This document shows, piece by piece, positions 19,214 through 63,756 of a stretch of 64,000 nucleotides of DNA. The notes under the pieces are model-generated. The model saw only the letters and a list, made by a program, of their open reading frames with translations, did not search any database and was not told the origin of the DNA. The DNA is from Paludibacteraceae bacterium (GTDB lineage: Bacteria; Bacteroidota; Bacteroidia; Bacteroidales; Paludibacteraceae). Numbering within the stretch: the first letter of the stretch is position 1; the number at the start of each line of letters is the position of its first letter. A program made the position numbers and the translations under genes. The stretch lies in contig JAZOOG010000017.1 in NCBI GenBank assembly GCA_045654945.1, positions 46,066 to 110,065 on the forward strand. The letters run 5' to 3'.

Positions 19214-19221
19214 GGAATACT

Positions 19222-20079: not shown

Positions 20080-22407
20080 ATGCAATCTAATATAAAAACT
20101 ATGGATAAAAAACAAAAAACGGGTATCGGAAATCGGGTATCGGGAAACGAAAGATTTAAGAAAACATTTGCTGCATGGTTCTGGAGCCTTTTTGCTACGG
20201 GAATGGTGGCTGTCGTACTGCTATTTTGGATGATTACCAAGGGTTGGTTGGGCTATTTGCCTCCGTTGGAAGAGTTGCAGAACCCCAAGAATAAGTATGC
20301 TACTGAGGTTATCTCAAGCGATATGCAGTTGCTCGGACGTTACTATCGCAACGAGAATCGTGTCAGCGTGAACTATACCGAAATCTCGCCCAATATGATT
20401 AATGCGCTGATTGCTACTGAGGATGTACGCTATTATGACCATACGGGTGTGGATATCAAGTCATTGATGCGTGCGGTTATGAAACTGGGTAGGGCAGGTG
20501 GCGGTAGTACACTCACCCAGCAGTTGGCTAAGCAATTGTGGTCGCCTCGTGCGAACAATATATTTGAGCGTGCGCTGCAAAAACCCATAGAGTGGGTGAT
20601 TGCCACCAAACTGGAACGCCTCTATTCCAAAGAGGAGATACTGACAATGTATCTAAACCAGTTTGATTTTCTCTATAATGCGGTGGGTATCAAGTCGGCA
20701 GCACAGGTATATTTCAGCACAACGCCTGCGGAACTCAACTTGGAGCAATCGGCCATGCTCGTTGGAATGTGTAAGAACCCAGCTCTCTACAATCCTCGTC
20801 GTCGCCCTGAGAACGCGCTCAACCGCCGTAATACGGTACTCAATCAGATGTGCAAATATGATTACATCACTGAGCAGGTGTGCGACTCGCTCAAACAACT
20901 ACCTATAGAACTCAAATACCAATCGGTGGACCACAAACAGGGCATGGCACCTTATTTCCGCGAGTATTTGCGCCAAATGCTGACTGCCAAGGAACCCAAA
21001 AAGAGCAACTATTCGGAGTGGAATATGCTGCAATATGAGATTGATAAACGCCAATGGGAGGAGAACCCGCTGTATGGTTTTTGCAACAAGAACCACAAAC
21101 CCGATGGTATGCCTTATGACTTATACCAAGATGGTTTGCGTGTTTATACCACTATTGATTCGCGTATGCAGCAATACGCTGAGGAGGCGGTGAGTGAGCA
21201 TATGCAAGACCTACAAAAGAGTTTCTTCCGCGAGAAACGCAAGAAATCATATGCTCCTTTCTCCAAGGATCTTACACCCGAGGAGATTGATGGTATCATG
21301 AATCGCTCTATGCGTCAAACCGATCGCTATCGTGCATTGAAAAAACAAGGAATGAACGAAACTGCTATCAAGCAGGTGTTCAATACGCCTGTCAATATGC
21401 GTGTGTTCTCGTATAACGGACTGATTGACACCACTATGACGCCTATGGATTCCATCCGCTGGAACAAACATTTCCTGCGTTGTGGTTTCATGTCAATGGA
21501 TGCCCATTCGGGTGCAGTTAAAGCCTATGTGGGCGGTCCTAACTTTGCTCATTTCCAATATGATATGGTCAGTACAGGTCGCCGTCAGGTAGGTTCTACA
21601 ATCAAGCCCTACCTCTTTACATTGGCAATGGATGAGGGTATGTGGCCATGCGATAGTACTGTGAATGACTCTATTACCCTGATTGATGGCAATGGTGTGC
21701 GTTGGACTCCGCGTGATGAACACTTGGCTAACCAAGGCGAGATGGTTACGCTCAACTGGGGATTGGAGAAATCGAGCAACTGGATTACTGCCTATCTGAT
21801 GTCACTCTTTACGCCTGAGCAGTTGGTGCGTATGATGCGTTCGTTTGGTATAGAAGGCCAACTCGACCCTGTGGTCAGTCTCTGTTTGGGACCATGTGAG
21901 GTGAGTGTGAAGGAGATGGTGGATGCTTATACCACTTTCCCTAATAAAGGTATCCGTGTTGAACCGTTGTATGTCACTCGTATTGAGGATAATAACGGCA
22001 ATATATTGGCTACCTTCACGCCTAAGACCTATGAGATTATCAGCGAGACTACCTCCTATAAGATGATCTATATGTTGCGCAATGTGATGGATCATGGTAC
22101 GGGAGTGCGTGCGCGTTTCCGTTATGGACTCAAAGCTCCGATGGGCGGCAAGACGGGTACTTCGCAGAACCACTCTGACGGTTGGTTTGTAGGTTTTACG
22201 CCATCGTTGGTGAGTGGTGTATGGGTTGGTGGCGAAGACCGCAGTATTCACTTTGACAATATGTCCGCGGGTCAAGGCGCTAATATGGCATTGCCTATTT
22301 GGTCTATTTATATGCAGAAGGTATATGCGAATGAGGAGTTGGGCTATAGCGTAGAGGAGCAGTTTGATGTGCCCGAGTGGTTCGATGCCGAGGCAGGATG
22401 TAAGTGA
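20080..22407 (+). CDS. mrcA: Class A penicillin-binding protein (transglycosylase/transpeptidase, PBP1A)
   Basis: GT51 motifs EDVRYYDHTGVD, GGSTLTQQLAK and RKPIEW-like. Transpeptidase motifs STIKP, SSN and KTGTS. The track start (19864) lies upstream of the promoter, so the start is set at ATG 20080 (20101 is also possible). The N-terminal tail carries the heptamer-derived TGIGNRVSGNE. Confidence 0.9.
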   Translation: MQSNIKTMDKKQKTGIGNRVSGNERFKKTFAAWFWSLFATGMVAVVLLFWMITKGWLGYLPPLEELQNPKNKYATEVISSDMQLLGRYYRNENRVSVNYTEISPNMINALIATEDVRYYDHTGVDIKSLMRAVMKLGRAGGGSTLTQQLAKQLWSPRANNIFERALQKPIEWVIATKLERLYSKEEILTMYLNQFDFLYNAVGIKSAAQVYFSTTPAELNLEQSAMLVGMCKNPALYNPRRRPENALNRRNTVLNQMCKYDYITEQVCDSLKQLPIELKYQSVDHKQGMAPYFREYLRQMLTAKEPKKSNYSEWNMLQYEIDKRQWEENPLYGFCNKNHKPDGMPYDLYQDGLRVYTTIDSRMQQYAEEAVSEHMQDLQKSFFREKRKKSYAPFSKDLTPEEIDGIMNRSMRQTDRYRALKKQGMNETAIKQVFNTPVNMRVFSYNGLIDTTMTPMDSIRWNKHFLRCGFMSMDAHSGAVKAYVGGPNFAHFQYDMVSTGRRQVGSTIKPYLFTLAMDEGMWPCDSTVNDSITLIDGNGVRWTPRDEHLANQGEMVTLNWGLEKSSNWITAYLMSLFTPEQLVRMMRSFGIEGQLDPVVSLCLGPCEVSVKEMVDAYTTFPNKGIRVEPLYVTRIEDNNGNILATFTPKTYEIISETTSYKMIYMLRNVMDHGTGVRARFRYGLKAPMGGKTGTSQNHSDGWFVGFTPSLVSGVWVGGEDRSIHFDNMSAGQGANMALPIWSIYMQKVYANEELGYSVEEQFDVPEWFDAEAGCK

Positions 22408-31440: not shown

Positions 31441-31492
31441 CCTTGCCTTTAAATCCTTACCTTTAACCTATAACCTTTAACCTTTAGCCTAA
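31441..31492. repeat. Heptamer array, CTCGCCT/TTAACCT family (R1)
   Basis: ccttgcctttaaatccttacctttaacctataacctttaacctttagcct fills the whole pyrE-to-972-aa-gene spacer. Confidence 0.85.
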
Positions 31493-31494
31493 CA

Positions 31495-32124
31495 TCACGC
31501 CATCCAACTCTCGTCAGAAGGGTTGTTGCGGAATTTGATCAGACGCTCTTTGTCTTCTGGAGCGATATATGCTTTGTCAGCAGCTACTTCGACGAGGGTG
31601 TCGAGGTCGCAAAGGCTGACGTTCTTTACTTCGGCTGCTGCCAAGCGCTCGAGGCCCTTCTTCATACCATAAGTGAAGATGCTCACGATGCCGAGTACAT
31701 CAGCACCCGCTTCGCGGAGGACATTCACTACCTCGATGCAGCTGCCACCAGTAGAGATAAGGTCCTCTACTACAACCACTTTCTGACCAGGAAGGAGTTT
31801 ACCTTCAATTTGGTTGCCACGGCCGTGATCCTTAGCTCCACTGCGTACATAACCCATAGGCAGGTCGAGGATAGTAGCCGTGATGGCTGCGTGAGCAATA
31901 CCTGCTGTAGAAGTACCCATGAGGACTTCAGCTTGAGGATAATGCTCGCGGATGAGGGCTGCGAGGCCGTTCTCTACGTCGTTGCGCACTTGGGTGTCGC
32001 TCAGGGTGAGACGGTTGTCGCAATAGATAGGACTCTTGATACCACTGGCCCATGTGAATGGCTCGTTTGGACGAAGGAAGACAGCTTTAATCTTCAGCAA
32101 GTCTTCAGCAATAAGTTGTTTCAT
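31495..32124 (-). CDS. pyrE: Orotate phosphoribosyltransferase
   Basis: [17 protein letters not shown] motif, 209 aa. Confidence 0.93.
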
Positions 32125-32139
32125 ATTGTTAGTTTTTTA

Positions 32140-32230
32140 GTTCAAAATTGTTCAACATTGTTCAATGTGGTTCAACATTGTTACAATACTGAACGCGAAG
32201 CGCTGAACAATACTGAACTATGTTGAACTA
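32140..32230. repeat. GTTCAA/TTGAAC array with 10-bp phasing, copy C (pyrF|pyrE junction)
   Basis: GTTCAA at 32140, 32150, 32160 and 32170, then CTGAAC units around CGCGAAGCGC. Confidence 0.9.
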
Positions 32231-32240
32231 TGAATTTTGC

Positions 32241-32939
32241 TTATCCGCAAAATTCTGCTACGCAGCGTTGGTAAGCAGCTACAGGGTCTTCGGCAGCGGT
32301 GATGGGGCGACCTACGACGATGAAGTCAGAGCCAATCTCGCGTGCTTTGGCTGGAGTAGTGATACGCACTTGGTCACCTACTACGCCATCGGCAAAGCGG
32401 ATACCTGGGGTAACGGTATAGAAATCCTTGCCGCATGCCTCTTTCACCATACCTGCCTCCAGTGGCGAGCAAACCACACCATCCAAACCAGCCGCTTGGG
32501 CGTTCTTCGCGTAATGTACTACCACATCACCAATATTGCCTTGGATAAGCAAGTCGTTGTGCATACGCTCCTCGCTGGTAGAGGTGAGTTGGGTAACAGC
32601 CAAAAGCACGGGACGAGTGCCGTCCTCGCGAGTGAGACCCTCAACAGCAGCTTTCATCATTTCGATGGTACCTGCGGCGTGGAGGTTACACATATCTACA
32701 TCCAGGCGACTAAGCACCGACATGGCTTTCTTGACGGTATTAGGTATATCGTGGAGCTTGAGATCGAGGAAGATCTTGTGTCCGCGGCGTTTGAGTTCGT
32801 GCACGATGGCAGGACCTTCTGCGTAGTAGAGTTCCATACCAATCTTTACGTAGGGCTTCACATCGCCCATCTTGTCAAGGAAGCGATAGGTCTCTTCTGC
32901 CGAAGCGAAATCGCATGCAATAATCACATCTTTATTCAT
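32241..32939 (-). CDS. pyrF: Orotidine-5'-phosphate decarboxylase
   Basis: IIACDF...[13 protein letters not shown]...ITPGIR. The start overlaps the pyrD stop (ATGAATAA). Confidence 0.93.
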
Positions 32940-33855
32940 GATTTACTATTCCTATTATATCTGTGAGTTTATCTATTTTCAGTTCATCCATAAGGGCTGG
33001 CAAACGATCTACAATCTCTTTTGCCACCATTGGGTTGGTGAGGTTAGCTGCGCCAATCTCCACGGCTGTCGCGCCTGCCATCATCATCTCTATCACATCT
33101 TCTGCGCTGCTCACGCCACCGCAACCGATGATAGGCAAGTTGATCGCGCGTGCCACTTGGTTCACCATGCGGAGGGCGAGTGGGAAGATGCCCGAACCCG
33201 AATAACCACCATATCGGTTGGCTATCACAGGACGGCGGCGACGAATGTCGATGCGCATACCCAGCACGGTATTGATGAGGCACAATCCATCTGCTCCCGC
33301 AGCTTCGCATGCTTTGGCAATGGCTACGATGTCCGTCACATTAGGCGACAGCTTCATATATACAGGTTTGGTAGTCACCGCCTTAACGGCTGCTGTCACT
33401 TCAGATGCTGCCTCAGGACTGGTACCAAATGCCATACCTCCGTTGTGCACATTAGGGCATGAGATATTCACCTCGAGGATGTCGATAGGTTCTTTGTCTA
33501 GTAAGGCGCAAGTCTCTACATAGTCTTGCACAGAGAAACCGCTGACATTTGCCACAATACAGCCGTTGTAGTGGCTCTTGAGGCGAGGCAACTCGTGGGC
33601 AATGACATGTTCCACACCAGGGTTTTGCAAGCCCACTGCGTTGATCATACCGTAGTTGCCGCACTCAGCAATACGAGGCAATGGGTTGCCGTAGCGTGCC
33701 TCGCGGGTGGTGCCTTTGAAGGATATACCGCCCAGACAGTTGATATCGTATAACTCAGCAAACTCATCGCCAAAACCATAGGTTCCCGATGCTGGGATGA
33801 TCGGATTGGCGAGGGTGATGCCAGAGAGGGATATTTGTAGTTTGTTGTGTAGCAT
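32932..33855 (-). CDS. pyrD: Dihydroorotate dehydrogenase, class 1B catalytic subunit
   Basis: [36 protein letters not shown]. The start is set at ATG 33855 ([10 protein letters not shown]). The track's 70-aa Arg-rich extension overlaps pyrK and looks spurious. Confidence 0.9.
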
Positions 33856-33878
33856 TGTGTAGTGTTGTGTAGAGTTGT

Positions 33879-34652
33879 TTAGAGTTGTAGGATTTCTGCG
33901 GGGAATACGGGGCCTTCTTTGCACACGCGTTTGGGTCCTTTCGTTGTTTGTATCGTGCAGCCCATGCATGCGCCGAAGCCGCATCCCATACGCTCCTCCA
34001 TGCTCACTTCGCCATGGGTACCAACGGCTTGCAGTAGTGCTTTGATCATGGGCAATGGTCCGCAAGTGTAGTAGTAGGATTGTTGTCCGTCCAGAGCGTT
34101 AGTCACAAAGCCCTTCACGCCATGACTGCCGTCCACGGTGGTGACAGTCACATCGCAACCCAAGGCACGAAACTCCTCCTCGTAGAAGACTTCCTCCTTG
34201 GTGTTGAAGCCGAGGATCACGCGCACCTTTTTGCCTGCTTTGCGAAGTTGGCGAGCCAGCATGTACATAGGAGGTACGCCTACGCCACCGCCGACCAGCA
34301 AGGGTGCGTCGCCTGCTTTGCTCAGGTCATAGCCGTTACCGAGAACAGTGAGAACATCCAGTTGGGTGCCGATTGGCAGTTGGCTCATAGCCTCGGTGCC
34401 TACGCCCACTACCTTATATATAATGGTGAGCACACCTCTCGCCTCTCGCCTCTCGCCTCTAACCTCTAACCTCTCGCCTTTCGCCTCACTAATATCGCAT
34501 ACCGAGATGGGGCGGCGGAGGAATTGACCTTGCACGCGGATATTCACGAACTGCCCAGGCAGTATGCCCGCAGTATCGCCTCCAAGCTGCATGCGATAGA
34601 CATTCTTGGCTATCTGTTCGTTGGATTGTATTTCAAATAATCTTTGCTTCAT
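33879..34652 (-). CDS. pyrK: Dihydroorotate dehydrogenase electron-transfer subunit
   Basis: RRPISV, GGGVGVPPM, and the C-terminal 2Fe-2S motif CGFGACMGC. It carries the in-frame repeat insert KGERLEVRGERREARG. Confidence 0.9.
   Translation of the reverse strand: MKQRLFEIQSNEQIAKNVYRMQLGGDTAGILPGQFVNIRVQGQFLRRPISVCDISEAKGERLEVRGERREARGVLTIIYKVVGVGTEAMSQLPIGTQLDVLTVLGNGYDLSKAGDAPLLVGGGVGVPPMYMLARQLRKAGKKVRVILGFNTKEEVFYEEEFRALGCDVTVTTVDGSHGVKGFVTNALDGQQSYYYTCGPLPMIKALLQAVGTHGEVSMEERMGCGFGACMGCTIQTTKGPKRVCKEGPVFPAEILQL
34434..34490. repeat. R1 heptamer array inside the pyrK coding sequence
   Basis: ctctcgcctctcgcctctcgcctctaacctctaacctctcgcctttcgcc. Its reverse complement translates in the pyrK frame to AKGERLEVRGERREARGV. 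Confidence 0.9.
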
Positions 34653-34684
34653 AATTCTTGCCTTTCGCCTTTAACTTTTCGCCT

Positions 34685-35812
34685 TTAACCTTGCACATTA
34701 TATACTGTTATTCCGTTGACGATGGTTTTGACGCACTTGCCATATACTTCCCATCCTTCAAACGGCATCGCTTGTCCCATGGAAAGGAAGTTCGCTGGAT
34801 CAATCTTGTAGCACGCATCTAAATCGAAGTAGGCAAATGAACCCGTATTGTCCAAACCGATAATACGAGCAGGATTGGTGGACATGAGTTCGATAAGACG
34901 CTCAAAAGTGATGATACCCGTCTTCACAAAATGCGTGTACATCAGCGGGAAAGCCGTTTCCAGTCCCACGATACCAAACGCACTTTTCTCCAATCCACGG
35001 CTCTTCTCCTCAGCGCTATGAGGCGCGTGGTCGGTGGCGATACAGTCTATAGTGCCATCTTTGATGCCCTCGATGAGCGCGAGGCGGTCTTCCTCAGCAC
35101 GCAGCGGTGGGTTCATCTTCCACTTGCCATCCTCTTGCAGGTCATTGTCGGTCAGCAGCAAATAGTGAGGTGCAGTCTCGCAAGTCACAGGCAGTCCTTT
35201 GGCTTTGGCCTCACGGATAAGCGCTACACTCTCCTTGGTGGAGATATGGCATATATGAAAACGACACCCTGTCTCTTCTACCAGACGGATGTCGCGTTCT
35301 ATCTCTTGCCACTCGCTCTCAGACACGATGCCACGGTGATTGTGTTTTTTTGCATACTCACCTGCGTGGATATAGCCGCCATTGAGTAGCGCCTCTACTT
35401 CGCAGTGAGCCACCATCACACGATCTACCGCACGAATTTGTTTCATCGCCTCGCGCATCAGTTCTTCGCTTTGCACGCCGCGACCGTCATCAGAGAACCC
35501 TTTGACGTATGGCGCCAATGCCTCAAAATCAACGAGTTCGCCTGCACCTTTCTGCCCCATGGTAATCGATGCAAACGGATAGACGCCTGTGTAGGTGTCG
35601 CGTTTGATAATGTCCAACTGCTCTTGCAGATGCTCTACGGTGTCTGGCACCGGATTGAGGTTAGGCATGGTGAATACTGCGCTGTAGCCAGATGCAGCTG
35701 CTGCCATACTACCCGAAGCAATAGTCTCTTTATACGAAAAACCCGGCTCACGAAAGTGGACATGCAGGTCCACAAGAGCCGGAATCTGTACTATGTTGCG
35801 TGGAATCGCCAT
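34685..35812 (-). CDS. pyrC: Dihydroorotase
   Basis: DLHVHFREPG, amidohydrolase fold. The start is set at ATG 35812 because the track start (TTG at 35842) overlaps the -7 promoter box. The last Gly codon and the stop lie in an R1 repeat unit (TTAACCT). Confidence 0.88.
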   Translation of the reverse strand: MAIPRNIVQIPALVDLHVHFREPGFSYKETIASGSMAAAASGYSAVFTMPNLNPVPDTVEHLQEQLDIIKRDTYTGVYPFASITMGQKGAGELVDFEALAPYVKGFSDDGRGVQSEELMREAMKQIRAVDRVMVAHCEVEALLNGGYIHAGEYAKKHNHRGIVSESEWQEIERDIRLVEETGCRFHICHISTKESVALIREAKAKGLPVTCETAPHYLLLTDNDLQEDGKWKMNPPLRAEEDRLALIEGIKDGTIDCIATDHAPHSAEEKSRGLEKSAFGIVGLETAFPLMYTHFVKTGIITFERLIELMSTNPARIIGLDNTGSFAYFDLDACYKIDPANFLSMGQAMPFEGWEVYGKCVKTIVNGITVYNVQG

Positions 35813-35839
35813 CTTTGGTGCAAATTTTAAATTTGCATG

Positions 35840-35875
35840 CAAAGTTACTGCTTTTTTTTGAAATATGCAAGTGTA
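35840..35875 (-). promoter_or_regulatory. Promoter for pyrC and the downstream pyr genes
   Basis: The minus strand reads cacTTGcatatttcaaaaaaaagcagTAACTTTGca. Confidence 0.6.
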
Positions 35876-35927
35876 GAAGAGATTTTTTTTTGTTCAAGTG
35901 CTTTTTTGCCAATTCTACTTATCAAAT

Positions 35928-35982
35928 CCACCCATCGCCTATAACCAATAGCCCATCGCCCATACCCAATCGCCTATACCAA
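35928..35982. repeat. Heptamer array, GGCTATT/GGCGATG family (R4), reverse orientation
   Basis: cacccatcgcctataaccaatagcccatcgcccatacccaatcgcctatacc, spanning the hemW stop. Confidence 0.8.
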
Positions 35983-37062
35983 CTCCTCGATGATGCGATT
36001 CAGTATATGAAAACCTTTAGTTGTGGCAACTACGCGTGTGCCTACTTCTTTCAGCAATCCCTGTTGGATATACGCTTGTGCTTTGTGGCTGTCAATATCC
36101 TCCATGGCTACACCCCTATTGGTGCGCAGCCCTAACATCACGCGCTCAGTATGTCGCTGTTCATCAGTCAGCCATTCTGTTTCGGGCTGCAACTGATGCC
36201 CCATAGCTTGTGCTATATAGCTATCAAGATCGCTGATATTCCAACTCCTGACCTGTCCATCGTAGCTATGTGCCCCTGCGCCCAAACCGATATAGGGCGT
36301 GTTGTTCCAGTAACTGGAGTTGTGTTGCGATTCGCGATTCGGCAGCGCAAAATTGCTCACCTCATAATGGATATACCCCTGTGCCGTCAGCTCTGCCACG
36401 ATATAGTCATACATCTGCATCTCCGTATCTTCGTCCACTGCTTCTATCACACCGTGGTCGAGCAATGTCGTCAGTGCGGTGCCTTCCTCGTATATCAGTC
36501 CGTAGGTGGATATATGTTGCACGCCCAACTGCAGTGCCTCAGCCACATCCTTCTTCCACATCTCCATCGTCTGCGAGGGCAGGGCATACATCAGGTCAAT
36601 GGATATATTGTCAAATCCCGCTGCTTGTGCTGTCGCCACTGCTCTGCGGGCTTGCTCGGCGTTGTGCCGTCTGCCTATGAGTTGCAGCAGCTCGTCATGA
36701 AAGCTCTGTATGCCTATGCTCAACCGATTGATACCCATCTCTCGCCACGCGCGAACTTTCTCTTCGGTTATATCCCCCGGATTGGCTTCCAATGTAATTT
36801 CTTGCCTCTCGCCTCTCGCCTCTCGCCTAATAGCCTCAACGATAGTTTGCAGGTCTTCCACCTGCAACGTACTGGGCGTACCACCACCTATATATATAGT
36901 GGATATTGGGTATTGGCTATTGGATATGGGTAGTCGGTCCTGCATTTCCATGAGCAGTGCCTGCACGTACTGCGATTGTTTCTCCAAATGTGTAGTGGAA
37001 AAAAAATCGCAGTACTTGCACCGACTCTTGCAAAATGGTATATGTATATATATCCCTGCCAA
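35974..37062 (-). CDS. hemW: Radical SAM HemW/HemN-family protein (heme chaperone / coproporphyrinogen oxidase-like)
   Basis: IYIHIPFCKSRCKYCDF is the CxxxCxxC radical SAM motif, with a HemN_C-like tail. Only a TTG start (37062) is available. The in-frame upstream ATG at 37107 runs into a stop. It contains the repeat-derived inserts LPISNSQYPIST and REARGERQE. Confidence 0.85.
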   Translation of the reverse strand: MAGIYIHIPFCKSRCKYCDFFSTTHLEKQSQYVQALLMEMQDRLPISNSQYPISTIYIGGGTPSTLQVEDLQTIVEAIRREARGERQEITLEANPGDITEEKVRAWREMGINRLSIGIQSFHDELLQLIGRRHNAEQARRAVATAQAAGFDNISIDLMYALPSQTMEMWKKDVAEALQLGVQHISTYGLIYEEGTALTTLLDHGVIEAVDEDTEMQMYDYIVAELTAQGYIHYEVSNFALPNRESQHNSSYWNNTPYIGLGAGAHSYDGQVRSWNISDLDSYIAQAMGHQLQPETEWLTDEQRHTERVMLGLRTNRGVAMEDIDSHKAQAYIQQGLLKEVGTRVVATTKGFHILNRIIEELV

Positions 37063-37065
37063 CTT

Positions 37066-37190
37066 CTTGCCTCTAACCTCTCGCCTTTAACCTCTCGCCT
37101 TTTGCATGCAGCTTTGCCGCTATCCGTGCCTCTACACTCTACACTCTACACCCTACACTCTACACCCTACACCCTACACTCTACACTCTA
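37066..37190. repeat. Composite element: R1 array, conserved core GCAGCTTTGCCGCTATCCGTGCC, then CTACACT (R2) array
   Basis: cctctaacctctcgcctttaacctctcgcc, ttttgcatgcagctttgccgctatccgtgcc, then (ctacact/ctacacc) x ~9. It fills the serine-hydrolase|hemW spacer. Confidence 0.9.
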
Positions 37191-37203
37191 AGCGACAGCG
37201 CCA

Positions 37204-38355
37204 TCACATCGCCTCGTAAATCGCATTCGCCAGCGTTTGGAGGAAGTGTGGGTCGTACTTATAGCCATTGGTCATTGCCACAATGCCCCATTGGTCTGCA
37301 GGACTCCACATCATGATGCTGCGCAGTCCGTACGCATCGCCCGTATGTCCTACTGGGTAATGACCTGGTTTGTTGTATTTCTCGTCGTTCAGAAAATCCA
37401 CGAACTCCTGCAAGCACAGTCCGTATTGGTCTTCCCACTCGTGCATGTTTTGTATGTACCACACAGGTGTCTGCATCGTCTTGGCGCTCTCTTCTGAGAT
37501 GATACGCACGCCATCCAGTTCGCCGTAGTTCATGTGCATCATCATATAGCGTGCCAAGTCGTGTGCCGATATTTTCACACCGCCAGTAGGCGAGAACATT
37601 GGTGCGGAGTAACCCATCACGTATCCGTCCAAACGGTGTGCCACGCTGCCGTAGGCAGCAGACTTCACGTATTGACCGTTGCGGTAGTTATATATGCTGG
37701 CCAGTTTGCTTTGGTCCAACATGTCCACATTGTGTCCACCGCACAATCCCAAACGAGTAATAATACTGTCTTTCACGTATTGGTCAAAGCGTACGCCCGA
37801 TACTTTCTCCAGTATGGTACCTGCCAGGTTCAGACCCAAGTTAGAGTAGTTATATCCTTCGCCTGGCTTGTATTCGTAGTATGTCGCAGCGCAGTCGCCA
37901 TTCACGGCTGGGTTGAGATGGTCGAGGGTGGAGTAGTTCTCTGGATCGCGGAAGCTGGCGGTGTGTGAGAGCACCATGCGCAGCGTGATAGGCACCTCAG
38001 GGTGATGAGGGTTACGGATAGTGAATCCAATGAGATCGCTGATGTCGTCATCCAGCGAAATGATGCCTTTCTCTACGTGTTGCATCAGTCCCGTAGCGGT
38101 AAAGGACTTCGAGATGGATGCAATACGCATCATGTGGTCGTTCTCGAGGGGTGTTTGTGTCTCCAGGTCTTGGTAGCCAAACGATTGGTTATAGACTATC
38201 TTCCCGTTTTGTACTACGGCGGCGGAGATACCGACGCACTCAAACTGTTCCATGACTTGCTCAATGGCATTGTTGATACGCTCTTCTTGTGTTGGCGCGC
38301 AACTGGTCAGCAGCATACTCGCTGCCACAACCCACATTAATTTGTTCCTTTTCAT
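37204..38355 (-). CDS. Serine hydrolase of the class C beta-lactamase / PBP4* family; lipoprotein
   Basis: Lipobox MLLTSCA. S-x-x-K motif SISKSFTA. Typical beta-lactamase-fold length. Confidence 0.8.
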   Translation of the reverse strand: MKRNKLMWVVAASMLLTSCAPTQEERINNAIEQVMEQFECVGISAAVVQNGKIVYNQSFGYQDLETQTPLENDHMMRIASISKSFTATGLMQHVEKGIISLDDDISDLIGFTIRNPHHPEVPITLRMVLSHTASFRDPENYSTLDHLNPAVNGDCAATYYEYKPGEGYNYSNLGLNLAGTILEKVSGVRFDQYVKDSIITRLGLCGGHNVDMLDQSKLASIYNYRNGQYVKSAAYGSVAHRLDGYVMGYSAPMFSPTGGVKISAHDLARYMMMHMNYGELDGVRIISEESAKTMQTPVWYIQNMHEWEDQYGLCLQEFVDFLNDEKYNKPGHYPVGHTGDAYGLRSIMMWSPADQWGIVAMTNGYKYDPHFLQTLANAIYEAM

Positions 38356-38382
38356 ATATATTACTTTTAAAGTTAATTCGTG

Positions 38383-38432
38383 CCTCTCGCCTTTCGCCTT
38401 TAACCTCTCGCCTCTAACCTCTCTCCTCTCCC
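38383..38432. repeat. R1 heptamer array overlapping the rarA 3' end
   Basis: gcctctcgcctttcgcctttaacctctcgcctctaacctctctcctctcccc. The last residues of rarA (..WGEERG*) are encoded in it. Confidence 0.85.
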
Positions 38433-39724
38433 CACAGATACCTCATCCACTCCGCCATTTTCTGTTCTTGCGGGCTGCCTTGCGCCTGCCAGAGTCGTGT
38501 GCCTTGCAGCGCATCGGGCATGAACTGTTGTTTGACAAAGTGGTTCGGATAGTCGTGCGCATACTTATATCCCTCGCCGTATCCCAACTCGTCCATGAGC
38601 TTCGTGGGCGCATTGCGCAGATGCAATGGCACTGGCAGGTTGCCTGTCTTCTCCACCAACTCCAGTGCCTGATTGATTGCTAAATATGCGGAGTTGGATT
38701 TCTGCGAAGTGGCGAGATACACTGTCGCCATCGCCAGCGGTATGCGTCCTTCGGGCCAACCTATTTTCTGCAATGTGTCGAAGCATGCGTTGGCCACCAA
38801 CATCGCATTGGGGTTCGCCAACCCTATATCTTCGCTCGCGGAGATCACCAAACGGCGGGCTATAAATTTCGGGTCTTCGCCTGCGGCTACCATGCGTGCC
38901 AACCAGTACAGTGCTGCATCGGGGTCGCTGCCGCGGATCGACTTGATAAACGCGGAGATGATGTCATAATGCAGTTCACCGTCCTTATCGTATGCCACGG
39001 GGTTCTGCTGCAGCTGCTTGGTGACGGTCTCGTTGTCCAGTATTTTGACCCCTGCATTGGTGACCAATTCCACGATGTTGAGCAGTTTGCGTGCATCGCC
39101 ACCCGAATAGCGTAGTATGCTTTCTGTCTCGCGCAGTTCGATATGCATACTGCGGATATACGCATCTTCGGTCAGTGCGCGTTGCAGCAGTTCCAGCAGG
39201 TCCTCTTTCTCCAATGACTTCAGCACATACACTTGACAGCGACTCAGCAGTGGTGTAATAACCTCAAACGATGGGTTCTCTGTGGTAGCACCTATCAGGG
39301 TGATAGTTCCATCTTCTACTGCGCCTAATAGACTGTCTTGCTGCGACTTAGAGAAACGGTGAATCTCATCGATAAACAATATCGCTCGCCCGACTCCCGA
39401 TTCCCGATTCCCGATACCCGATTCCCGATCTCCAAACAACCCTCTATCCATCGCCGCAAATCGTTTCGCTTTATCGATCACCTCACGCACTTCTTTCACA
39501 CCGCTGGTAACGGCGCTGAGGGTGTAGAACGGACGTTCCAACTGGTGTGCGATGATGCGTGCCAGTGTGGTCTTGCCCACGCCTGGAGGCCCCCAAAGGA
39601 TAAAGGACGACAGACTGCCGTTCTCTATCATCTGTCGTAGGACGGCTCCTTCGCCTACCAGGTGCTTTTGTCCTATGTATTCATTGAGCGTCTTCGGACG
39701 CAATCGCTCTGCTAATGGCAACAT
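38414..39724 (-). CDS. rarA: Replication-associated recombination protein A (MgsA/RarA AAA+ ATPase)
   Basis: LWGPPGVGKTTLA, FIDEIHRFSKSQQD, MgsA C-terminal domain. It contains the in-frame insert GDRESGIGNRESGVGR from a CGGGAAT heptamer array. Confidence 0.92.
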   Translation of the reverse strand: MLPLAERLRPKTLNEYIGQKHLVGEGAVLRQMIENGSLSSFILWGPPGVGKTTLARIIAHQLERPFYTLSAVTSGVKEVREVIDKAKRFAAMDRGLFGDRESGIGNRESGVGRAILFIDEIHRFSKSQQDSLLGAVEDGTITLIGATTENPSFEVITPLLSRCQVYVLKSLEKEDLLELLQRALTEDAYIRSMHIELRETESILRYSGGDARKLLNIVELVTNAGVKILDNETVTKQLQQNPVAYDKDGELHYDIISAFIKSIRGSDPDAALYWLARMVAAGEDPKFIARRLVISASEDIGLANPNAMLVANACFDTLQKIGWPEGRIPLAMATVYLATSQKSNSAYLAINQALELVEKTGNLPVPLHLRNAPTKLMDELGYGEGYKYAHDYPNHFVKQQFMPDALQGTRLWQAQGSPQEQKMAEWMRYLWGEERG

Positions 39725-39725
39725 C

Positions 39726-39880
39726 TGTTTTTAGTTTTTAGTTTTAAGTGTAGAGTGTAGGGTGTAGAGTGTAATGGCTGGTAATATGCGGCTTTGCCGC
39801 TATTCGTGCCTTTAACCTTTCGCCTTTAACCTTTCGCCTTTAACCTCTCGCCTTTAACCTCATCGCCTCCTCGCCTATAT
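39726..39880. repeat. Composite element: TAGTTTT and AGTGTAG (R2, reverse) arrays, core GCGGCTTTGCCGCTATTCGTGCC, then R1 array
   Basis: tgtttttagtttttagttttaagtgtagagtgtagggtgtagagtgta, atggctggtaatatgcggctttgccgctattcgtgcc, then tttaacctttcgcctttaacctttcgcctttaacctctcgcctttaacctcatcgcctcctcgcc. It fills the recN|rarA spacer and reaches the recN stop. Confidence 0.9.
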
Positions 39881-41506
39881 CCTCCTCATTTTCTCTATCT
39901 CCTCCTCATGCTCTTCAGCGCTCAGTTCGCGGATATGTGTTTCGGTGCGGACCTCTGTATCCTCTTTATATACTAAGTAGTGGTGTTCGCCTTTCGTGGC
40001 CACCTGTGGCAGGTGGGTGATGCTTATCACCTGACGCGAGACGGCCATCTGCCGCATGATCTCACCCATCTGACTGGCTATCGCTCCGCTCACACCTGTG
40101 TCTATTTCGTCAAAGATAATCGTCGGTAGTCCGTTATTGCGGGCTATTAACGCTTTGATACACAGCATCAGTCGGCTGATCTCACCGCCCGATGCCACTT
40201 CCGCTACGCGACGTAGCGATTGGTTCAGGTTCGCAGCGAACATAAACTGCACATTGTCTTTTCCCGTCTCTTGGTACTCTTCTGTGGGCTGAATCTCCAC
40301 GGCTACTTTAGCGTGCGCTACACCCAATCCCTGCATATCCTTCACCAACTGCTCTGCTATTGTCTGTGTCACTGCTTGGCGCGACTGCGTCAGCTGGCTC
40401 GCCTCTTCGCTCAGTCTCTCCAGGGCCTGCTCCGCTTGCGCTTGCAGTTTCTCCAGTTCCTCGTCCATATTCTCCAATCGTTGCACCTGTGTCTCTAATT
40501 CGTCGCGCAATGCTATCAGTTCCTCCACAGTCTGCACATGGTGTTTCTTCATCAGCGTCTGCAGCATACTCAGTCGCTCCTGCACCTGCTCCAGGCGCAT
40601 AGGGTCGATCTCTGTGCGATCGTACTGGCGTTGGATATCCGATACTATATCTTTCAACTCAATCTCTACACTGCTGAGACGCTCTTCTATCTCCGATGCC
40701 CGATTTCCTATACCCGACCTACTGGCATGTATGAGCGACAATGCGCCCTGATCGCTATCCAATTGCTGTAGGGCAGTCGCGAGGGCAGACTGTATCTCTT
40801 CGGCATGTGCCAAACGATACTCCTCTTCTTCCAATGCCTCCATCTCGCCTGCCATCAGCTGAGCTTCTGCCAACTGATGGTATTGCCATTGCATATAGTC
40901 CGCATCCGTCTGCGCTTTCTTGGCCATTGCTTGTGCTTCGCGCAGACTGGTCATTGCTGCCTGATAGGAGGTGTACGCTTCGTTATATGCCTCGCGCTCG
41001 GCTCCGTTGCCTGCTATCGCATCCACCACTGCTATCTGAAACAGGTCATCGCCTATCATCAGACTCTCGTGCTGCGAATGGATGTCTATGAGTTGGCGAG
41101 CCAATGCTTTCAGCTCCGTTTGCGTCACCACCTCGTCGTTCACGAACGACCGCGAACGTCCATTCTGATTAAGTTCCCTACGGATAATTACCTCTCGCCT
41201 CTCGCCTCTCGCCTCATCACCTTTAGCCTTTAGCCTCTCGCCTTTCGCCTCCTCGCCTTTAGCCTCTCGCCTCTCGCCTCTCGCCTCATCGCCTTTTGCC
41301 TCAAACGTCGCCTCTATCACGCATCGCTCCTCACCTTCGGTGATGCTCTTGCTGTCGGCGCGAGCGCCCATCACCAAGTTCAGCGCACCCAGTATGATGC
41401 TCTTACCGGCACCCGTCTCACCCGTCATAACGGAGAATCCCTCACGGAAATCAATGTCCAAATGAGAGATAAGTGCGTAGTTGCGTATGTGTAGATGACT
41501 TAGCAT
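39875..41506 (-). CDS. recN: DNA repair protein RecN
   Basis: MLSHLHIRNYALI..., Walker A GETGAGKS, SMC-like coiled coil, C-terminal SGGE signature. The start is set at ATG 41506, downstream of the -7 box. It has a ~37-aa repeat-encoded insert: EAKGDEARGERREAKGEEAKGERLKAKGDEARGERRE. Confidence 0.92.
   Translation of the reverse strand: MLSHLHIRNYALISHLDIDFREGFSVMTGETGAGKSIILGALNLVMGARADSKSITEGEERCVIEATFEAKGDEARGERREAKGEEAKGERLKAKGDEARGERREVIIRRELNQNGRSRSFVNDEVVTQTELKALARQLIDIHSQHESLMIGDDLFQIAVVDAIAGNGAEREAYNEAYTSYQAAMTSLREAQAMAKKAQTDADYMQWQYHQLAEAQLMAGEMEALEEEEYRLAHAEEIQSALATALQQLDSDQGALSLIHASRSGIGNRASEIEERLSSVEIELKDIVSDIQRQYDRTEIDPMRLEQVQERLSMLQTLMKKHHVQTVEELIALRDELETQVQRLENMDEELEKLQAQAEQALERLSEEASQLTQSRQAVTQTIAEQLVKDMQGLGVAHAKVAVEIQPTEEYQETGKDNVQFMFAANLNQSLRRVAEVASGGEISRLMLCIKALIARNNGLPTIIFDEIDTGVSGAIASQMGEIMRQMAVSRQVISITHLPQVATKGEHHYLVYKEDTEVRTETHIRELSAEEHEEEIEKMRRI
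41190..41300. repeat. R1 heptamer array of about 110 bp inside the recN coding sequence
   Basis: cctctcgcctctcgcctctcgcctcatcacctttagcctttagcctctcgcctttcgcctcctcgcctttagcctctcgcctctcgcctctcgcctcatcgcc. Confidence 0.9.
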
Positions 41507-41592: not shown

Positions 41593-41625
41593 GTTTGGTT
41601 ATTTCAAAATTTCTTTGTACCTTTG
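41593..41625 (+). promoter_or_regulatory. Promoter for the 5-alpha-reductase-like gene, divergent from recN
   Basis: atgTTTGgttatttcaaaatttctttgTACCTTTG. Confidence 0.6.
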
Positions 41626-41651
41626 TCCGCGAATTTTTAATAATACAGCTT

Positions 41652-42437: not shown

Positions 42438-42470
42438 GTCTCATAATTCAAAATTCATAATTCAAAATTT
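42437..42470. repeat. Heptamer array, TTCATAA/TTCAAAA family (R5)
   Basis: agtctcataattcaaaattcataattcaaaatt fills the spacer up to the next start codon. Confidence 0.8.
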
Positions 42471-42471
42471 G

Positions 42472-43713: not shown

Positions 43714-43715
43714 TT

Positions 43716-43748
43716 TCTCGGCTATTGGCTATTGGCTATCGGCTATAA
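43716..43748. repeat. R4 heptamer array (GGCTATT x ~4)
   Basis: tttctcggctattggctattggctatcggctataag, immediately after the stop codon. Confidence 0.85.
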
Positions 43749-43782
43749 GATTAAGCGGTTGAGCGCAGCGTTATTCGGGGAT

Positions 43783-44040
43783 TTTTTTATATTTTTGTAG
43801 CGAAGCGTATTTTGTATGAAAAGATAATTGATTTTAATTGTCTCTCAAGTTGTCTAAGTTGTCTGATAAATAATCATTTTTGTTTTGGGTTGCCAGCGAC
43901 GTGTCGCTCTTCCAACCCAAACAAAAAATCCCCCTTGAATTGACAATAATTAACACCTTAATTGACGTCTATTGTCTTAAAAACATAACCTGTTATTTAT
44001 ATATATTTTTGTAGCGAAGCGTATTTTTGTATTAAAAAAA
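43783..44040 (+). repeat. Intergenic cassette of about 260 bp, copy A (promoter-like module, hairpin, promoter-like module)
   Basis: Near-identical to 46110-46376. It starts and ends with ATATTTTTGTAG-CGAAGC-GTATTTTTGTAT. It contains AGTTGTCT x3 and the extended hairpin TTTTTGTTTTGGGTTG...CAACCCAAACAAAAAA (43877-43927). Confidence 0.85.
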
Positions 44041-44056: not shown

Positions 44057-44884
44057 ATGCTTTCACTTGTCACAGGCGCCTCATCGGGCATTGGCCTCCA
44101 ATACGCCACCCAGCTTGCGCGCGATTACCATACCGACCTCTTGCTGGTCAGCAACCAGCAGCAGGAGCTTCAGCAGGTAGCCACCGAATTGGCTGCTCAA
44201 TACGGTGTTCGTACGATTCCGCTCTACGCGGACCTCTCCCAGCCAGACGCTGCGGAGCGCTTGCACCAGTATTGTCTGGACAACCACCTCGTGGTGGATA
44301 TCCTCATCAACAATGCGGGTGTCTTTTTCTTCAATCCCTATTGCGAGACCTCGATGAAGCGTATCGAGTTGATTCTCAACCTCCATATGATCACCGTGGC
44401 TAAACTCTGCCGCTTGTTTGGCGAGCAGATGATCCATCGCCAGTTGACTGCCGACGAGCAGTCGCAGACTATCTGTGGCAAGGCGCGCCAGAAGGGTTAT
44501 ATCCTCAATATGTCTTCCATGTCTGCATGGATGGCTATGCCGGGTATCCAGTCTTATAATGCTACCAAGGCTTTCATCTACAATTTCTCCAAGTCCTTGT
44601 GGTACGAACTGCGCCCTAAGGGTGTGTCTATCACTGTCATGACACCGGGTGCGGTAGATACGGCGCTATTTGGTCTCGCGCCTCATCTGCGCCGTCTGGC
44701 GGTAGCCTTGACGGTCTCTATCCCGCCGGAGAAACTGGTCAAGCGTGCATTGCGTAAGATGTTCCGTGGCAAGAAGGCTGATATGCCGGGTGTCATCAAC
44801 TGGCTGGCGACTCCATTGCTCAAGCACACCCCGGACTGGCTGGTGTTCTTGGTGATGAAGTTCATCGGCAAATACCAAAAATAA
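44057..44884 (+). CDS. Short-chain dehydrogenase/reductase (candidate hydroxysteroid dehydrogenase)
   Basis: TGASSGIG, NNAG and S...YNATK are the classical SDR motifs. Confidence 0.85.
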   Translation: MLSLVTGASSGIGLQYATQLARDYHTDLLLVSNQQQELQQVATELAAQYGVRTIPLYADLSQPDAAERLHQYCLDNHLVVDILINNAGVFFFNPYCETSMKRIELILNLHMITVAKLCRLFGEQMIHRQLTADEQSQTICGKARQKGYILNMSSMSAWMAMPGIQSYNATKAFIYNFSKSLWYELRPKGVSITVMTPGAVDTALFGLAPHLRRLAVALTVSIPPEKLVKRALRKMFRGKKADMPGVINWLATPLLKHTPDWLVFLVMKFIGKYQK

Positions 44885-44917
44885 TTCCTAATTCAAAATT
44901 CATAATTCATAATTCAA
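44884..44917. repeat. R5 heptamer array
   Basis: attcctaattcaaaattcataattcataattcaa runs from the stop codon to the gmd ATG. Confidence 0.8.
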
Positions 44918-46021
44918 ATGAAGACCGCTCTTATTACAGGTATAACGGGTCAAGACGGCTCGTATTTGGCAGAATTTCTCTTGGAGAAAGGCTACGATGT
45001 GCATGGCATCATTCGCCGTAGTTCAGTGGACTACCGCGAGCGTATTGCGCATCTCGAAGGTAAAGAACATTTCCACCTCCACTATGGCGATATGTCCGAC
45101 TCCATGGGCCTCATTCAGGTGATTGGTAAGGTGCGTCCAGACGAGATCTACAACTTAGCAGCGCAGAGCCATGTGCAGGTCAGCTTCGACTCGCCTGAGT
45201 TCACCGCCGACATCGATGCTACGGGCGTTCTGCGCGTCTTGGAGGCAGTGCGTGCCTGCGGACTCACCCACACCTGCCGTATCTACCAGGCTTCTACTTC
45301 TGAGCTCTATGGCAAGGTAGAGGAGGTGCCACAAAACGAGAATACGCCTTTCCACCCTTATTCGCCTTATGCTGTAGCCAAGCTCTATGGCTATTGGATT
45401 GTCAAGGAGTACCGCGAGGCATATAATATGTTCTGCTGTTCGGGTATCTTGTTCAACCACGAGTCGGAGCGCCGTGGCGAGACTTTCGTAACGCGTAAGA
45501 TCACCCTCGCGGCAGCGCGCATCGCACAGGGCAAGCAGGAGAAACTCTATTTGGGCAACCTCTCTTCGTTGCGCGATTGGGGCTATGCCAAGGATTATGT
45601 AGAATGTATGTGGCTCATCTTGCAGCACGAGACACCCGAGGATTTTGTTATTGCTACGGGCGAGCAGCACTCGGTGCGTGAGTTCTGCGATTTGGCTTTC
45701 CGCGAGGCGGGTATCACCTTGGAGTTCCGTGGCGAGGGTGCTGAGGAGACGGGTGTTTGCGTAGAGGGTCCTAAGCATTTGTTGGGCAAGACATTGGTAG
45801 AGGTGTCGCCTGATTTCTATCGTCCAACGGATGTGGTGAACTTGTGGGGTGACCCTACCAAGGCCAAGAAGGCGTTGGGTTGGAATCCATCGAAGACTAC
45901 TTTTGAGGAGTTGGTTCGTTTGATGGTGCGCCACGATATGCAGAAGGTGGCTGCGGACCACGCAGCGGAGCAGGCTCGTGTGAATCTTGCCGAATACCTC
46001 GAACGCGGCATTGTTAAGTAG
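44918..46021 (+). CDS. gmd: GDP-mannose 4,6-dehydratase
   Basis: [40 protein letters not shown]. Confidence 0.95.
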
Positions 46022-48585: not shown

Positions 48586-48624
48586 GCCTCTAACCTCTCG
48601 CCTTTAGCCTCTAACCTCTAACCT
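48586..48624. repeat. R1 heptamer array upstream of the surface-protein operon
   Basis: gcctctaacctctcgcctttagcctctaacctctaacct. Confidence 0.85.
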
Positions 48625-60281: not shown

Positions 60282-60309
60282 TGATATAAGGTTGAAGGTT
60301 TAATGTTTA

Positions 60310-60711
60310 ATGTTTAAAGACATGGAAACAATGAAAATTATGAAAGCAATGAGATTCTTATTGATAGTTCTTGGATTATCCACCGTATTGACTTTGTCGG
60401 CTCAGTCTTTTGCTGAGCAACCTGTAGTGCAGATGCATTCCACTTCTGCTATGATGGGGTCGGGTAGTGAACTACCTCAGGCTGCTATTACGGGTACGTA
60501 CACTACTTATTCATCGGGTTCTGGTTCATCTTTTTCTCCCCGTGGTCCGCAACGTTCTTTAGAGGACGGCGAGGACAAGCCAGACGGCTGGGACGAGCCT
60601 TTCGACGAGCCAGTGGGCAACGTGCCTTGGTTGTTGATGCTTCTCCTCGCGCTGGGCTACGCCCTGCGCGTAAACCTTCCGAAGGACATTCAAAATAGTG
60701 GTAGTGAGTAG
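60310..60711 (+). CDS. Small secreted Ser/Gly-rich protein with a C-terminal hydrophobic anchor
   Basis: Signal MKAMRFLLIVLGLSTVLTLSAQ. The tail is DEPVGNVPWLLMLLLALGYALRV. Several in-frame ATGs (60310-60349) leave the start uncertain. The last ~12 codons lie inside dispersed repeat copy 3. Confidence 0.55.
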   Translation: MFKDMETMKIMKAMRFLLIVLGLSTVLTLSAQSFAEQPVVQMHSTSAMMGSGSELPQAAITGTYTTYSSGSGSSFSPRGPQRSLEDGEDKPDGWDEPFDEPVGNVPWLLMLLLALGYALRVNLPKDIQNSGSE

Positions 60712-61599: not shown

Positions 61600-61628
61600 A
61601 GTTTCGTTTAATGTTTAATGTTTAATGT
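61600..61628. repeat. Heptamer array GTTTAAT (R6)
   Basis: tttcgtttaatgtttaatgtttaatgttg. A second copy sits at 60296-60320, between protein 3 and the 133-aa ORF. Confidence 0.85.
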
Positions 61629-61678
61629 TGAAAGGCAAGGATTTTCGGATTCCAACTTCAGATCATCTAACCGAGCAA

Positions 61679-63728: not shown

Positions 63729-63752
63729 CCTCTCGCCTCTCGCCTTTAGCCT
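63727..63752. repeat. R1 heptamer array between convergent gene ends
   Basis: agcctctcgcctctcgcctttagcct. Confidence 0.85.
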
Positions 63753-63756
63753 ATAG

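Follow-up and report, generated by a model that had tools for sequence, protein, structure and literature searches.

Dense heptanucleotide tandem arrays in gene spacers and in-frame loops of a Paludibacteraceae genome

Tandem repeats built on a 7-nt unit have been reported from several bacterial groups. Among simple sequence repeats (SSRs) of long unit (5–11 nt; LSSRs), heptanucleotides were the most abundant in the survey of Mrázek 2007 and were phylogenetically scattered; that work, as relayed in two later papers (PMC4692102, PMC4679880), put forward slippage with a polymerase footprint of ~7 nt, the sole published proposal on the 7-nt preference in those accounts. The short tandemly repeated repetitive (STRR) heptamers of heterocystous cyanobacteria go back to Mazel 1990 (as cited in PMC4692102). 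Rehm 2015 characterized GGGNATC and GGGGAYT arrays of Xanthomonas and Nostoc, which lie in spacers between co-directional open reading frames (ORFs) at most 50 bp from start or stop codons, are depleted in coding DNA (intragenic share 7–11% in Xanthomonas and ~32% in Nostoc), and are of variable length when close relatives are compared (PMC4692102). MacGregor 2015 described TAACTGA heptamers in Beggiatoaceae, cyanobacteria, and five Bacteroidetes, including Paludibacter propionicigenes, as well as other heptamer repeats in Gramella and Aequorivita (PMC4679880). Here, we analyzed 64,000 nt of a Paludibacteraceae genome (GCA_045654945.1, contig JAZOOG010000017.1, positions 46,066 to 110,065; hereafter the window), in which heptamer arrays occupy gene spacers and also lie within conserved genes. 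These arrays belong to the heptameric SSR class already published elsewhere, of which they are an unusually dense new example rather than a new kind of system.

The window carries dispersed head-to-tail tandem copies of 7 nt, at least three copies per array and ~22 arrays per 64 kb. Period 7 is over-represented, both against shuffles of the window and against other periods in 208 kb of the lineage; the arrays lie mostly in intergenic DNA near start or stop codons (5.7% of non-coding DNA vs. 0.57% of coding DNA), and their copy number varies by whole units between close relatives, which together is the profile of heptanucleotide LSSRs. In the Mrázek 2007 survey, as described in PMC4692102, SSRs of long unit were associated mainly with genomes that are large, high in GC, and from free-living organisms, whereas the organism considered here is a gut or rumen anaerobe of ~46% GC. 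One of the unit families in the window, R3 (GGGAATC/GGGTATC; families R1 to R6 are given in Table 1), has the GGGNATC unit of Rehm 2015, and such tandem arrays occur at 39389–39429 and 20120–20144 and in the related loci L001, L005, and L006, but make up only a minority of the arrays. Further shared traits are the location in co-directional spacers and no more than ~50 bp from start or stop codons, the depletion in coding DNA with an intragenic minority, and the length variation. However, GGGAATC is a minor unit here and its main array in the window is intragenic and on the coding strand, no four-unit preference was seen, the array density is higher, and most arrays (R1, R2, and R4–R6) have G-runs of at most 2, with which canonical three-tetrad quadruplexes are impossible.

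As with the STRR sequences in the cited description, several heptamer families are dispersed in one genome, mostly between genes, and are polymorphic enough for strain fingerprinting, so that the analogy drawn in an original prediction, made by reading the letters of the window, was apt. The two differ in phylum and in unit sequence. The STRR units are CCCCAGT, TTGGTCA, and CAACAGT, and no tandem doublet of any of these occurs in the window or in 15 related loci. The TAACTGA repeats resemble the window arrays in being direct repeats that immediately precede start codons or overlap with stop codons, with an orientation constrained by stop-codon content and occasional in-frame copies within ORFs (PMC4679880). 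They differ in having one dominant unit and a proposed role as a translational regulator, whereas here many units occur without positional conservation and tandem TAACTGA is absent from the window. Phase-variation contingency loci likewise involve hypermutable tandem repeats in or beside genes, whereas the genes affected here have housekeeping functions and every change seen preserves the frame; the intragenic changes are multiples of 21 nt, with no on/off frameshift and no bias to surface or virulence genes. The original prediction knew of no comparable system other than STRR and of no equivalent in Bacteroidota. This overstates the novelty, given the heptamer excess in bacteria published by Mrázek 2007 (as cited in PMC4692102 and PMC4679880), the GGGNATC arrays of like gene-boundary anatomy in Xanthomonas and Nostoc (PMC4692102), and the five Bacteroidetes, Paludibacter among them, already reported (PMC4679880). 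In the literature searched, no link of heptamer repeats to gut or rumen Bacteroidales was found.

Arrays were detected with Tandem Repeats Finder and with a lag-autocorrelation scan of the window at strict and looser settings. In the strict scan, period 7 accounted for 11 arrays (373 bp), compared with 0 in 20 dinucleotide-preserving shuffles; across periods 2–24, periods 10, 11, and 14 gave three arrays each, periods 8, 18, and 24 one each, and all others none. The looser scan returned 22 arrays with period 7, 14, or 21, and the density, all families counted, is ~1 array per 3 kb. Essentially all of the arrays listed in the original prediction were recovered at their positions by the two methods: R1 at 10 of 10 sites, R4 at three of three, R5 and R6 at two of two each, and the TAGTTTT array. 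The R2 sites proved mixed, with solid arrays at 37130 and 39747, a two-unit remnant at 10286, a period-10 array at 33848, and a hairpin with R2-like arms at 3979; for R3, the array at 39388 is solid, those at 20120 and 63975 are short but real, and 40700 is a degenerate remnant. Four weaker sites (3979, 10286, 33848, and 40700) thus fail as period-7 arrays, 10286 and 40700 being remnants of 2–3 units. The further claims that arrays sit at almost every gene boundary, often run exactly from stop to start codon, and keep a strict 7-bp period hold in part. The first describes ~31–45 kb, which contains 17 of the 22 arrays, but not the whole window, where 12 of 40 spacers carry one. Arrays fill 55–100% of the spacer in eight of the 10 spacers measured, but only 8% and 27% in the other two. 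Period 7 dominates, and periods 10/20 and 11 also occur.

Co-directional spacers carried an array in 10 of 30 cases vs. two of 10 for convergent or divergent spacers, a difference that is not significant. Stops in the sense frame are present in 14 of 15 intergenic arrays (in all three sense frames for the R2 array at 37130), and intragenic arrays avoid them. As had been predicted, the pyrC stop codon (TAA, 34685–34687) falls within an array unit, CCTTTAACC (TTAACC), and the rarA C-terminus lies in an array. Orientation is also strongly biased for R1, for which 38 of 39 doublets stand on the + strand as CCT-type units (arrays 31439–63756). Since this also holds beside + strand genes (48587 and 63728, the former antisense relative to the R1 arrays at 31–41 kb), R1 orientation tracks the chromosome and not transcription, and it may represent a replication-strand bias; paired R1 arrays in other genomes occur in both orientations. 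The R2 part of the array at 39727–39773 is inverted relative to that at 37130–37190; these two R2 arrays (39747–39773, AGTGTAG, and 37130–37190, CTCTACA, on the + strand) stand ~2.5 kb apart and bracket the bla-family gene and rarA, making them a potential inversion substrate.

Comparison with the 15 related loci (numbered with L) reveals how rapidly these arrays change. Relatives of RarA number in the thousands; the best 120 are 91–99% identical, and one of these (P0046, 93% identical) is labelled by NCBI as a Paludibacteraceae metagenome-assembled genome (MAG); the original prediction had pointed to Prevotellaceae as the relatives, but the organism itself is labelled Paludibacteraceae. Sample and MAG names suggest that the relatives come from ruminant and faecal sources. 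The closest comparison, between the window and L006, which belong to one species, gave 97.4% identity over 3.1 kb, with all indels inside arrays and none elsewhere. The net indels are 14, 21, 98, and 14 nt, each divisible by 7. Specifically, L006 has 98 nt more in the rarA to bla spacer (where L005 carries an extra CCAATAG array), 21 nt more at 39727–39773, and 14 nt less in the array at 39808.

More distant comparisons show replacement as well as length change. The array at 31439 has orthologs in L127 and L133, is shorter or decayed in L128, L129, L131, and L132, and is absent from L134; the pyrC–pyrK spacer contains a period-11 array in L127, L129, L131, and L132 or an inserted PDDEXK_3 gene in L128 and L130. 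A period-11 array differs by 33 nt between L129 and L132. In L005, the R4 array at 35931 and the R2 array at 37130 have no counterpart and the R1 array at 37061 is represented by only ~2 units, while the recN–rarA spacer measures 150 nt in the window, 24 nt in L001, and 12 nt in L005. Even among strains with an identical PyrE protein (91–92% nucleotide identity), orthologous spacers hold differing arrays or none, with unrelated units and periods of 7, 8, 9, 10, or 11; some spacer arrays of relatives are paired in inverted orientation on either side of small GC hairpins. In 208 kb of the lineage, we counted 36 arrays of period 7, 10 of period 11, six of period 9, five of period 8, and four of period 10. 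At the other extreme, L127 and L133, which are independent assemblies, are identical over 8.4 kb, arrays included. Thus, the strain comparison indicates that arrays are often born, altered by whole units, and quickly replaced, and that they are kept only where tolerated.

About six arrays lie in frame within conserved housekeeping genes, namely pyrK, a hemW-like radical-SAM gene, rarA, recN, and purL, a placement that the original prediction did not list as such (the purL array was not listed at all). The peptide encoded by the pyrK array corresponds to a gap relative to PyrK 1ep3_B and aligns to a turn in the barrel that binds flavin adenine dinucleotide. This loop exists in three states: empty in L128, L129, and L132; filled by an R1 array in the window; and filled by an unrelated period-21 array, encoding QPLNNAT repeats, in L127 and L130. 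An exact look-up of the window PyrK matched no record. In rarA, the array-encoded loop aligns as an insert relative to Escherichia coli RarA (3pvs), and P0019, P0100, and L005 each carry a further 21 nt (7 aa). Residues 95–113 of the AlphaFold model of RarA are coil and have the lowest predicted local distance difference test (pLDDT) values of the AAA+ core; since overall confidence is low (mean pLDDT 57.5), the model lends the loop placement weak support. The R1 array of the hemW-like gene is equal in position and length in L005, which has 42 nt more (six units, 14 aa) at the site corresponding to the R4 array. The rarA and hemW-like arrays occupy codon positions shared by species that are ~80% identical in DNA, with lengths that differ by 21 and 42 nt.

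The recN array, the longest in the window, has a higher-order period of 36 nt, or 12 codons, and falls between aligned blocks of RecN 4ad8. Its size is ~114 nt in the window, ~30 nt in L006, and ~42 nt in L005, and it is essentially absent from L001. A unit-like GAGGCGA is already present in the flank of the site in the window, and the empty allele of L001 reads GGCGAAGA, both of which are compatible with a local origin of the array. For purL, no PDB match covers the array segment for an insert comparison with a solved structure. Because 7 and 3 have no common factor, all three frames of a heptamer array encode one 7-residue repeat, and insertion in any frame therefore yields one, mostly hydrophilic, peptide.

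Beyond this lineage, we scanned 596 Gb for a four-unit R1-family pattern (AGGYKAR×4), for which we estimate a chance expectation of ~0.07 matches. The pattern was found at at least 119 loci across many phyla, several of them in complete isolate chromosomes, and in 58 viral contigs. Among the matches listed are Cyanobacteria (Rivularia, Richelia, Calothrix, and Plectonema), Gammaproteobacteria (Methylotuvimicrobium, Wenzhouxiangella, and Vibrio), many Bacteroidota (~9 Paludibacteraceae loci, rumen Bacteroidales and Prevotella MAGs, Alistipes, and Chitinophagaceae), and Acidobacteriota, Verrucomicrobiota, Planctomycetota, Chloroflexota, and others. The apparent ubiquity of R1 is biased, as the loci were chosen by R1; once the selecting arrays were removed, the matched loci listed still held 116 other period-7 arrays vs. 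at most 23 of any other period. The heptamer-array phenomenon is, therefore, not lineage-specific, and the observation that unrelated units share one period, made on the window, extends to other phyla. A closed, universal heptamer vocabulary across phyla was considered and rejected, with 32–46 distinct canonical units per group among the matches listed (for Bacteroidota, 46 among 97 arrays).

The explanation that we favor, at a probability of roughly 70%, is that slippage or unequal exchange acts on heptanucleotide SSRs, with selection as a filter and no dedicated function, so that the arrays would be mutational by-products and not a dedicated cis-element. Wherever two or three 7-nt copies are present, an array would grow or shrink by whole units, through strand slippage in replication or repair or through unequal exchange, and selection would decide where it survives. 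In spacers, arrays would expand until they abut stop or start codons, some of them taking over the stop or the last residues of a gene; within genes, they would survive only in permissive surface loops, with units that lack a sense-frame stop, and only frame-keeping length changes (21 nt, 42 nt, and the 36-nt higher-order block) would be tolerated. Of the generating mechanisms in the original prediction, slippage in register is the candidate that the data support, since the allele differences are whole unit multiples. The data show whole-unit polymorphism, rapid turnover, placement in loops, and occurrence across phyla; slippage as the molecular event, the lack of function, and any reason for the 7-nt preference, such as the published ~7-nt polymerase footprint, are inferred. 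Several observations pull the other way. A few unit families recur at many sites (R1 at at least 10 in 64 kb, almost always on one strand), and random slippage alone does not explain such recurrence with a strand bias; nor does slippage explain why GGGAATC and AGGYKAR recur in unrelated phyla or why 7 is favored over 6 or 8. Isolated exact two-copy duplications of period 7 numbered 12 vs. ~8 expected, which is not clearly above chance; this low-powered test weakly suggests that the period-7 bias comes into play when arrays expand or persist and not when they are born. Finally, a composite of array, GGCACGRAT hairpin, and array recurs at two spacers, which hints at copying between loci.

The recurrence of unit families is what a dedicated, or semi-dedicated, generating and dispersal process would explain, in which a mobile-element-like, nuclease-associated, or template-switching activity transfers copies of arrays or array–hairpin modules from locus to locus, possibly with horizontal spread between phyla, and slippage only adjusts length later. 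The small number of unit families at many loci, their strand bias, the composite modules (with a GCACGRAT duplication flanking an extra segment in L005 and L006), identical units in distant phyla and viruses, the argument of MacGregor 2015 for horizontal spread of TAACTGA repeats (PMC4679880), and the PDDEXK_3 gene in an array-prone spacer of L128 and L130 all speak for it. We nevertheless consider it unlikely: no gene for a transposase, reverse transcriptase, or nuclease consistently neighbors the arrays, homologues of PDDEXK_3 were found in just four of ~190 loci, and the arrays lack terminal inverted repeats and clear target-site duplications. Moreover, units are highly diverse (the 46 canonical units noted above), the spacers that hold arrays also hold periods of 8–11, and the recN flank and GGCGAAGA fit a local origin. 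Another, and rather unlikely, possibility is that the heptad register reflects a specific, perhaps transferable, property of replication or repair, or an unrecognised array-copying activity, and not passive slippage; if so, cyanobacteria, Xanthomonas, Beggiatoaceae, many Bacteroidales, and some viruses would have this property in common, and it would preferentially expand or disperse the AGGYKAR and GGGNATC families with a strand bias.

A functional role in cis, whether as heptad-periodic binding sites for a protein or RNA (such as Csp- or S1-like single-strand binders) or as punctuation for RNA processing or translation in operons, appears improbable; a heptad reader and RNA-processing punctuation had been raised in the original prediction. 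The 10-fold enrichment in non-coding DNA, the frequent abutting of start or stop codons, and the unstructured, purine- or A-rich array RNA upstream of start codons would suit it. An unstructured purine- or A-rich leader could favor Shine–Dalgarno-independent initiation in Bacteroidota. A functional role in cis has also been proposed for TAACTGA (MacGregor 2015, PMC4679880). However, orthologous spacers of close relatives lack arrays altogether (12–24 nt) or hold unrelated units and periods (8–11), which, together with the three-state pyrK loop, argues against conserved function. Only 12 of 40 spacers bear an array, arrays also lie inside ORFs, and R1 occurs in both orientations relative to transcription. 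The suggested search against Rfam gave 0 matches at gathering thresholds for the whole window, and array spacers folded no better than shuffles (z +0.7 to −0.5), on which grounds we rejected a structured-RNA reading of the arrays. That the arrays are instead artefacts of short-read metagenome assembly or sequencing would be conceivable, in that short-read assemblers are known to handle tandem repeats poorly and most of the loci are metagenomic. Yet the arrays keep the reading frames of conserved genes open and take equal positions in independent assemblies (L127 and L133; the window and L006) from differing samples and sources, and the matches in complete isolate chromosomes, with the identical arrays of independent assemblies, rule out an assembly artefact for practical purposes.

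With slippage filtered by selection as the favored explanation, the slippage-prone heptamers repeatedly write 7-residue repeats into loops of essential enzymes (RarA, RecN, PyrK, and the HemW-like protein), a cheap source of protein length variation. The phenomenon reaches host-associated Bacteroidales at high density, where dense strain series exist for its study; this Paludibacteraceae lineage, with hundreds of close metagenomic strains and arrays in shared loops, offers a natural system for the birth, spread, and loss of arrays. In practice, such hypervariable arrays could serve as markers to tell apart strains of the abundant, uncultured Bacteroidales of rumen and gut, and they will mislead gene callers through changed starts, stops, and C-termini and confound protein clustering at 90% identity and short-read assembly. 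The in-frame loop insertions, the three-state pyrK loop, and the strain-level dynamics also provide material for the question of why 7 bp is favored.

Table 1. Heptamer arrays and a hairpin module in the window (units on the strand given unless noted; positions count from the first letter of the window)
Feature	Position	Strand	Remark
R1 array, AGGTTAA/AGGCTAA	31439..31490	-	Fills 93% of the spacer from pyrE to the Golvesin_C gene
R1 array	34663..34689	-	pyrC to pyrK spacer; gives the pyrC stop codon
R4 array, GGCGATG/GGGTATG/GGCTATT	35931..35974	-	Directly after the stop of the hemW-like gene
R1 array, period 14, AGGCGAG/AGGTTAA alternating	37061..37102	-	Upstream of the hemW-like start codon
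R2 array, GTGTAGA/GTGTAGG, 8.7 units	37130..37190	-	After the stop of the beta-lactamase-family (bla) gene
R1 array	38382..38430	-	Covers the rarA C-terminus (WGEERG*), stop codon, and rarA to bla spacer
TAGTTTT array and R2 array	39727..39773	-	Immediately upstream of the rarA start codon
R1 array, period 14, 4.3 double units	39808..39868	-	After the recN stop codon
R5 array, TCATAAT/TCAAAAT	42441..42469	+	34-nt spacer between + strand genes
R4 array, GGCTATT	43720..43746	+	After the stop of the Oxidored_FMN gene
R5 array	44881..44918	+	Fills 100% of the 33-nt spacer from the adh_short gene to the next gene
R1 array, CCTCTAA on + strand	48587..48624	+	30 nt upstream of a + strand gene
AAGGTTG/GTTTAAT array	60288..60317	+	28-nt spacer
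R6 array, GTTTAAT, 3.4 units	61606..61629	.	Tandem Repeats Finder
R1 array	63728..63756	+	Begins at the stop codon of a + strand gene
R3 array, short, CGGGTAT, 3.6 units	20120..20144	+	
pyrK R1 array	34435..34486	-	In frame; encodes EAKGERLEVRGERREARG
hemW-like radical-SAM gene, R1 array	36800..36828	-	In frame; encodes REARGERQ
hemW-like gene, R4 array, CCAATAN sense	36896..36927	-	In frame; encodes ISNSQYPIS, just before the GGGTPS motif
rarA R3 array, GGGAATC/GGGTATC sense	39389..39429	-	In frame; encodes loop GDRESGIGNRESGVG before Walker B
Degenerate R3 remnant inside recN	40700..40720	-	SRSGIGNRASE; weak
recN R1 array, longest (~16 units)	41191..41302	-	In frame; encodes EAKGDEARGERREAKGEEAKGERLKAKGDEARGERRE
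purL (formylglycinamide ribonucleotide amidotransferase, FGAR-AT) R4-like array	11397..11429	-	Inside the ORF; encodes ANCPSPIANS
Small hairpin module GGCACGGATAGCGGCAAAGCTGC	37105..37130	-	Between two arrays

The hairpin module consists of GGCACGRAT-AGCGGCAAAGCYGC, with a 5-bp stem and an AAA loop, and is flanked by two different heptamer arrays. A second copy lies at 39788–39810, L006 has a copy at 1421–1443, and L005 has a variant around 11385; in both L005 and L006, the duplicated GCACGRAT stands on either side of an additional segment made up of a hairpin and an array. The core GCTTTGCCGCTATNCGTGCC was considered as a dispersed mobile element and rejected, as only two copies in the window and one in L006, all of one species, were found. 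The window, L128, and L134 carry comparable GC hairpins after the guaB stop. The PDDEXK_3 (PF13366) gene of the pyrC–pyrK spacer, which encodes ~120 aa (L128, 6798–7178; L130, 3991–4338), is flanked by short direct and inverted repeats in a spacer that bears arrays in other strains. As the array generator, this nuclease was rejected, a jackhmmer search of all ORFs having found only four homologues in ~190 loci, the remaining two being in L077 and L105.

Gene order in this region also differs among the relatives. A Steroid_dh, Oxidored_FMN, and adh_short block lies upstream of recN in the window (41595–44884) and in L005 and downstream of rarA, in convergent orientation, in L001 and L002, and a tRNA-synt_1b gene instead precedes rarA in L002 and L003. 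The breakpoints in gene order coincide with array-bearing spacers.

Other repeat classes share the window with the heptamers. Period-10/20 elements at 4905–5001, 25801–25922, 32125–32240, and 47346–47373, made of GTTCAAAATT/GTTCAACATT followed by inverse TTGAAC units, fill co-directional spacers and form long hairpins (z −4.9 and −4.0). The hairpin character of repetitive extragenic palindromic (REP) sequences, bacterial interspersed mosaic elements, and miniature inverted-repeat transposable elements (MITEs) is found in these separate GTTCAACATT elements and not in the heptamer-array spacers. The element in the pyrF–pyrE spacer is present in the window and L128 and absent from L127 and L129 (spacers of 37 and 32 nt), a pattern that looks like REP/MITE-type presence and absence. 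Period 11, the second commonest array period in the lineage, is represented at 3139–3202, 19836–19860, 19950–19978, and 48327–48367 by ACGATGAGGTC, CCGTTACCACT, ATCCACCGCTT, and ATAGGACATCT, and the feature at 3979–4015, a hairpin and not an array, is formed by a perfect inverted repeat of 12 bp (GATAGAGTGTAG…CTACACTCTATC) with the R2 heptamer in its arms.

Array content also varies with base composition along the window. Segments of low GC (1–4000, 16001–20000, and 48001–56000; GC 0.38–0.40 vs. ~0.49 elsewhere) are almost without heptamer arrays and hold very large ORFs (50411–53869, 1152 aa; 53916–60281, 2121 aa); they may be more recently acquired DNA in which arrays have not yet accumulated. 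Finally, an ORF on the + strand (17741–19213) contains period-9/18/27/36 repeats, AAGATGGCA and CAAGATGGT, at 17637–17948 and 18076–18109, which would encode Gly-X-Y triplets (DGKDGQNG) and suggest a collagen-like repeat protein.

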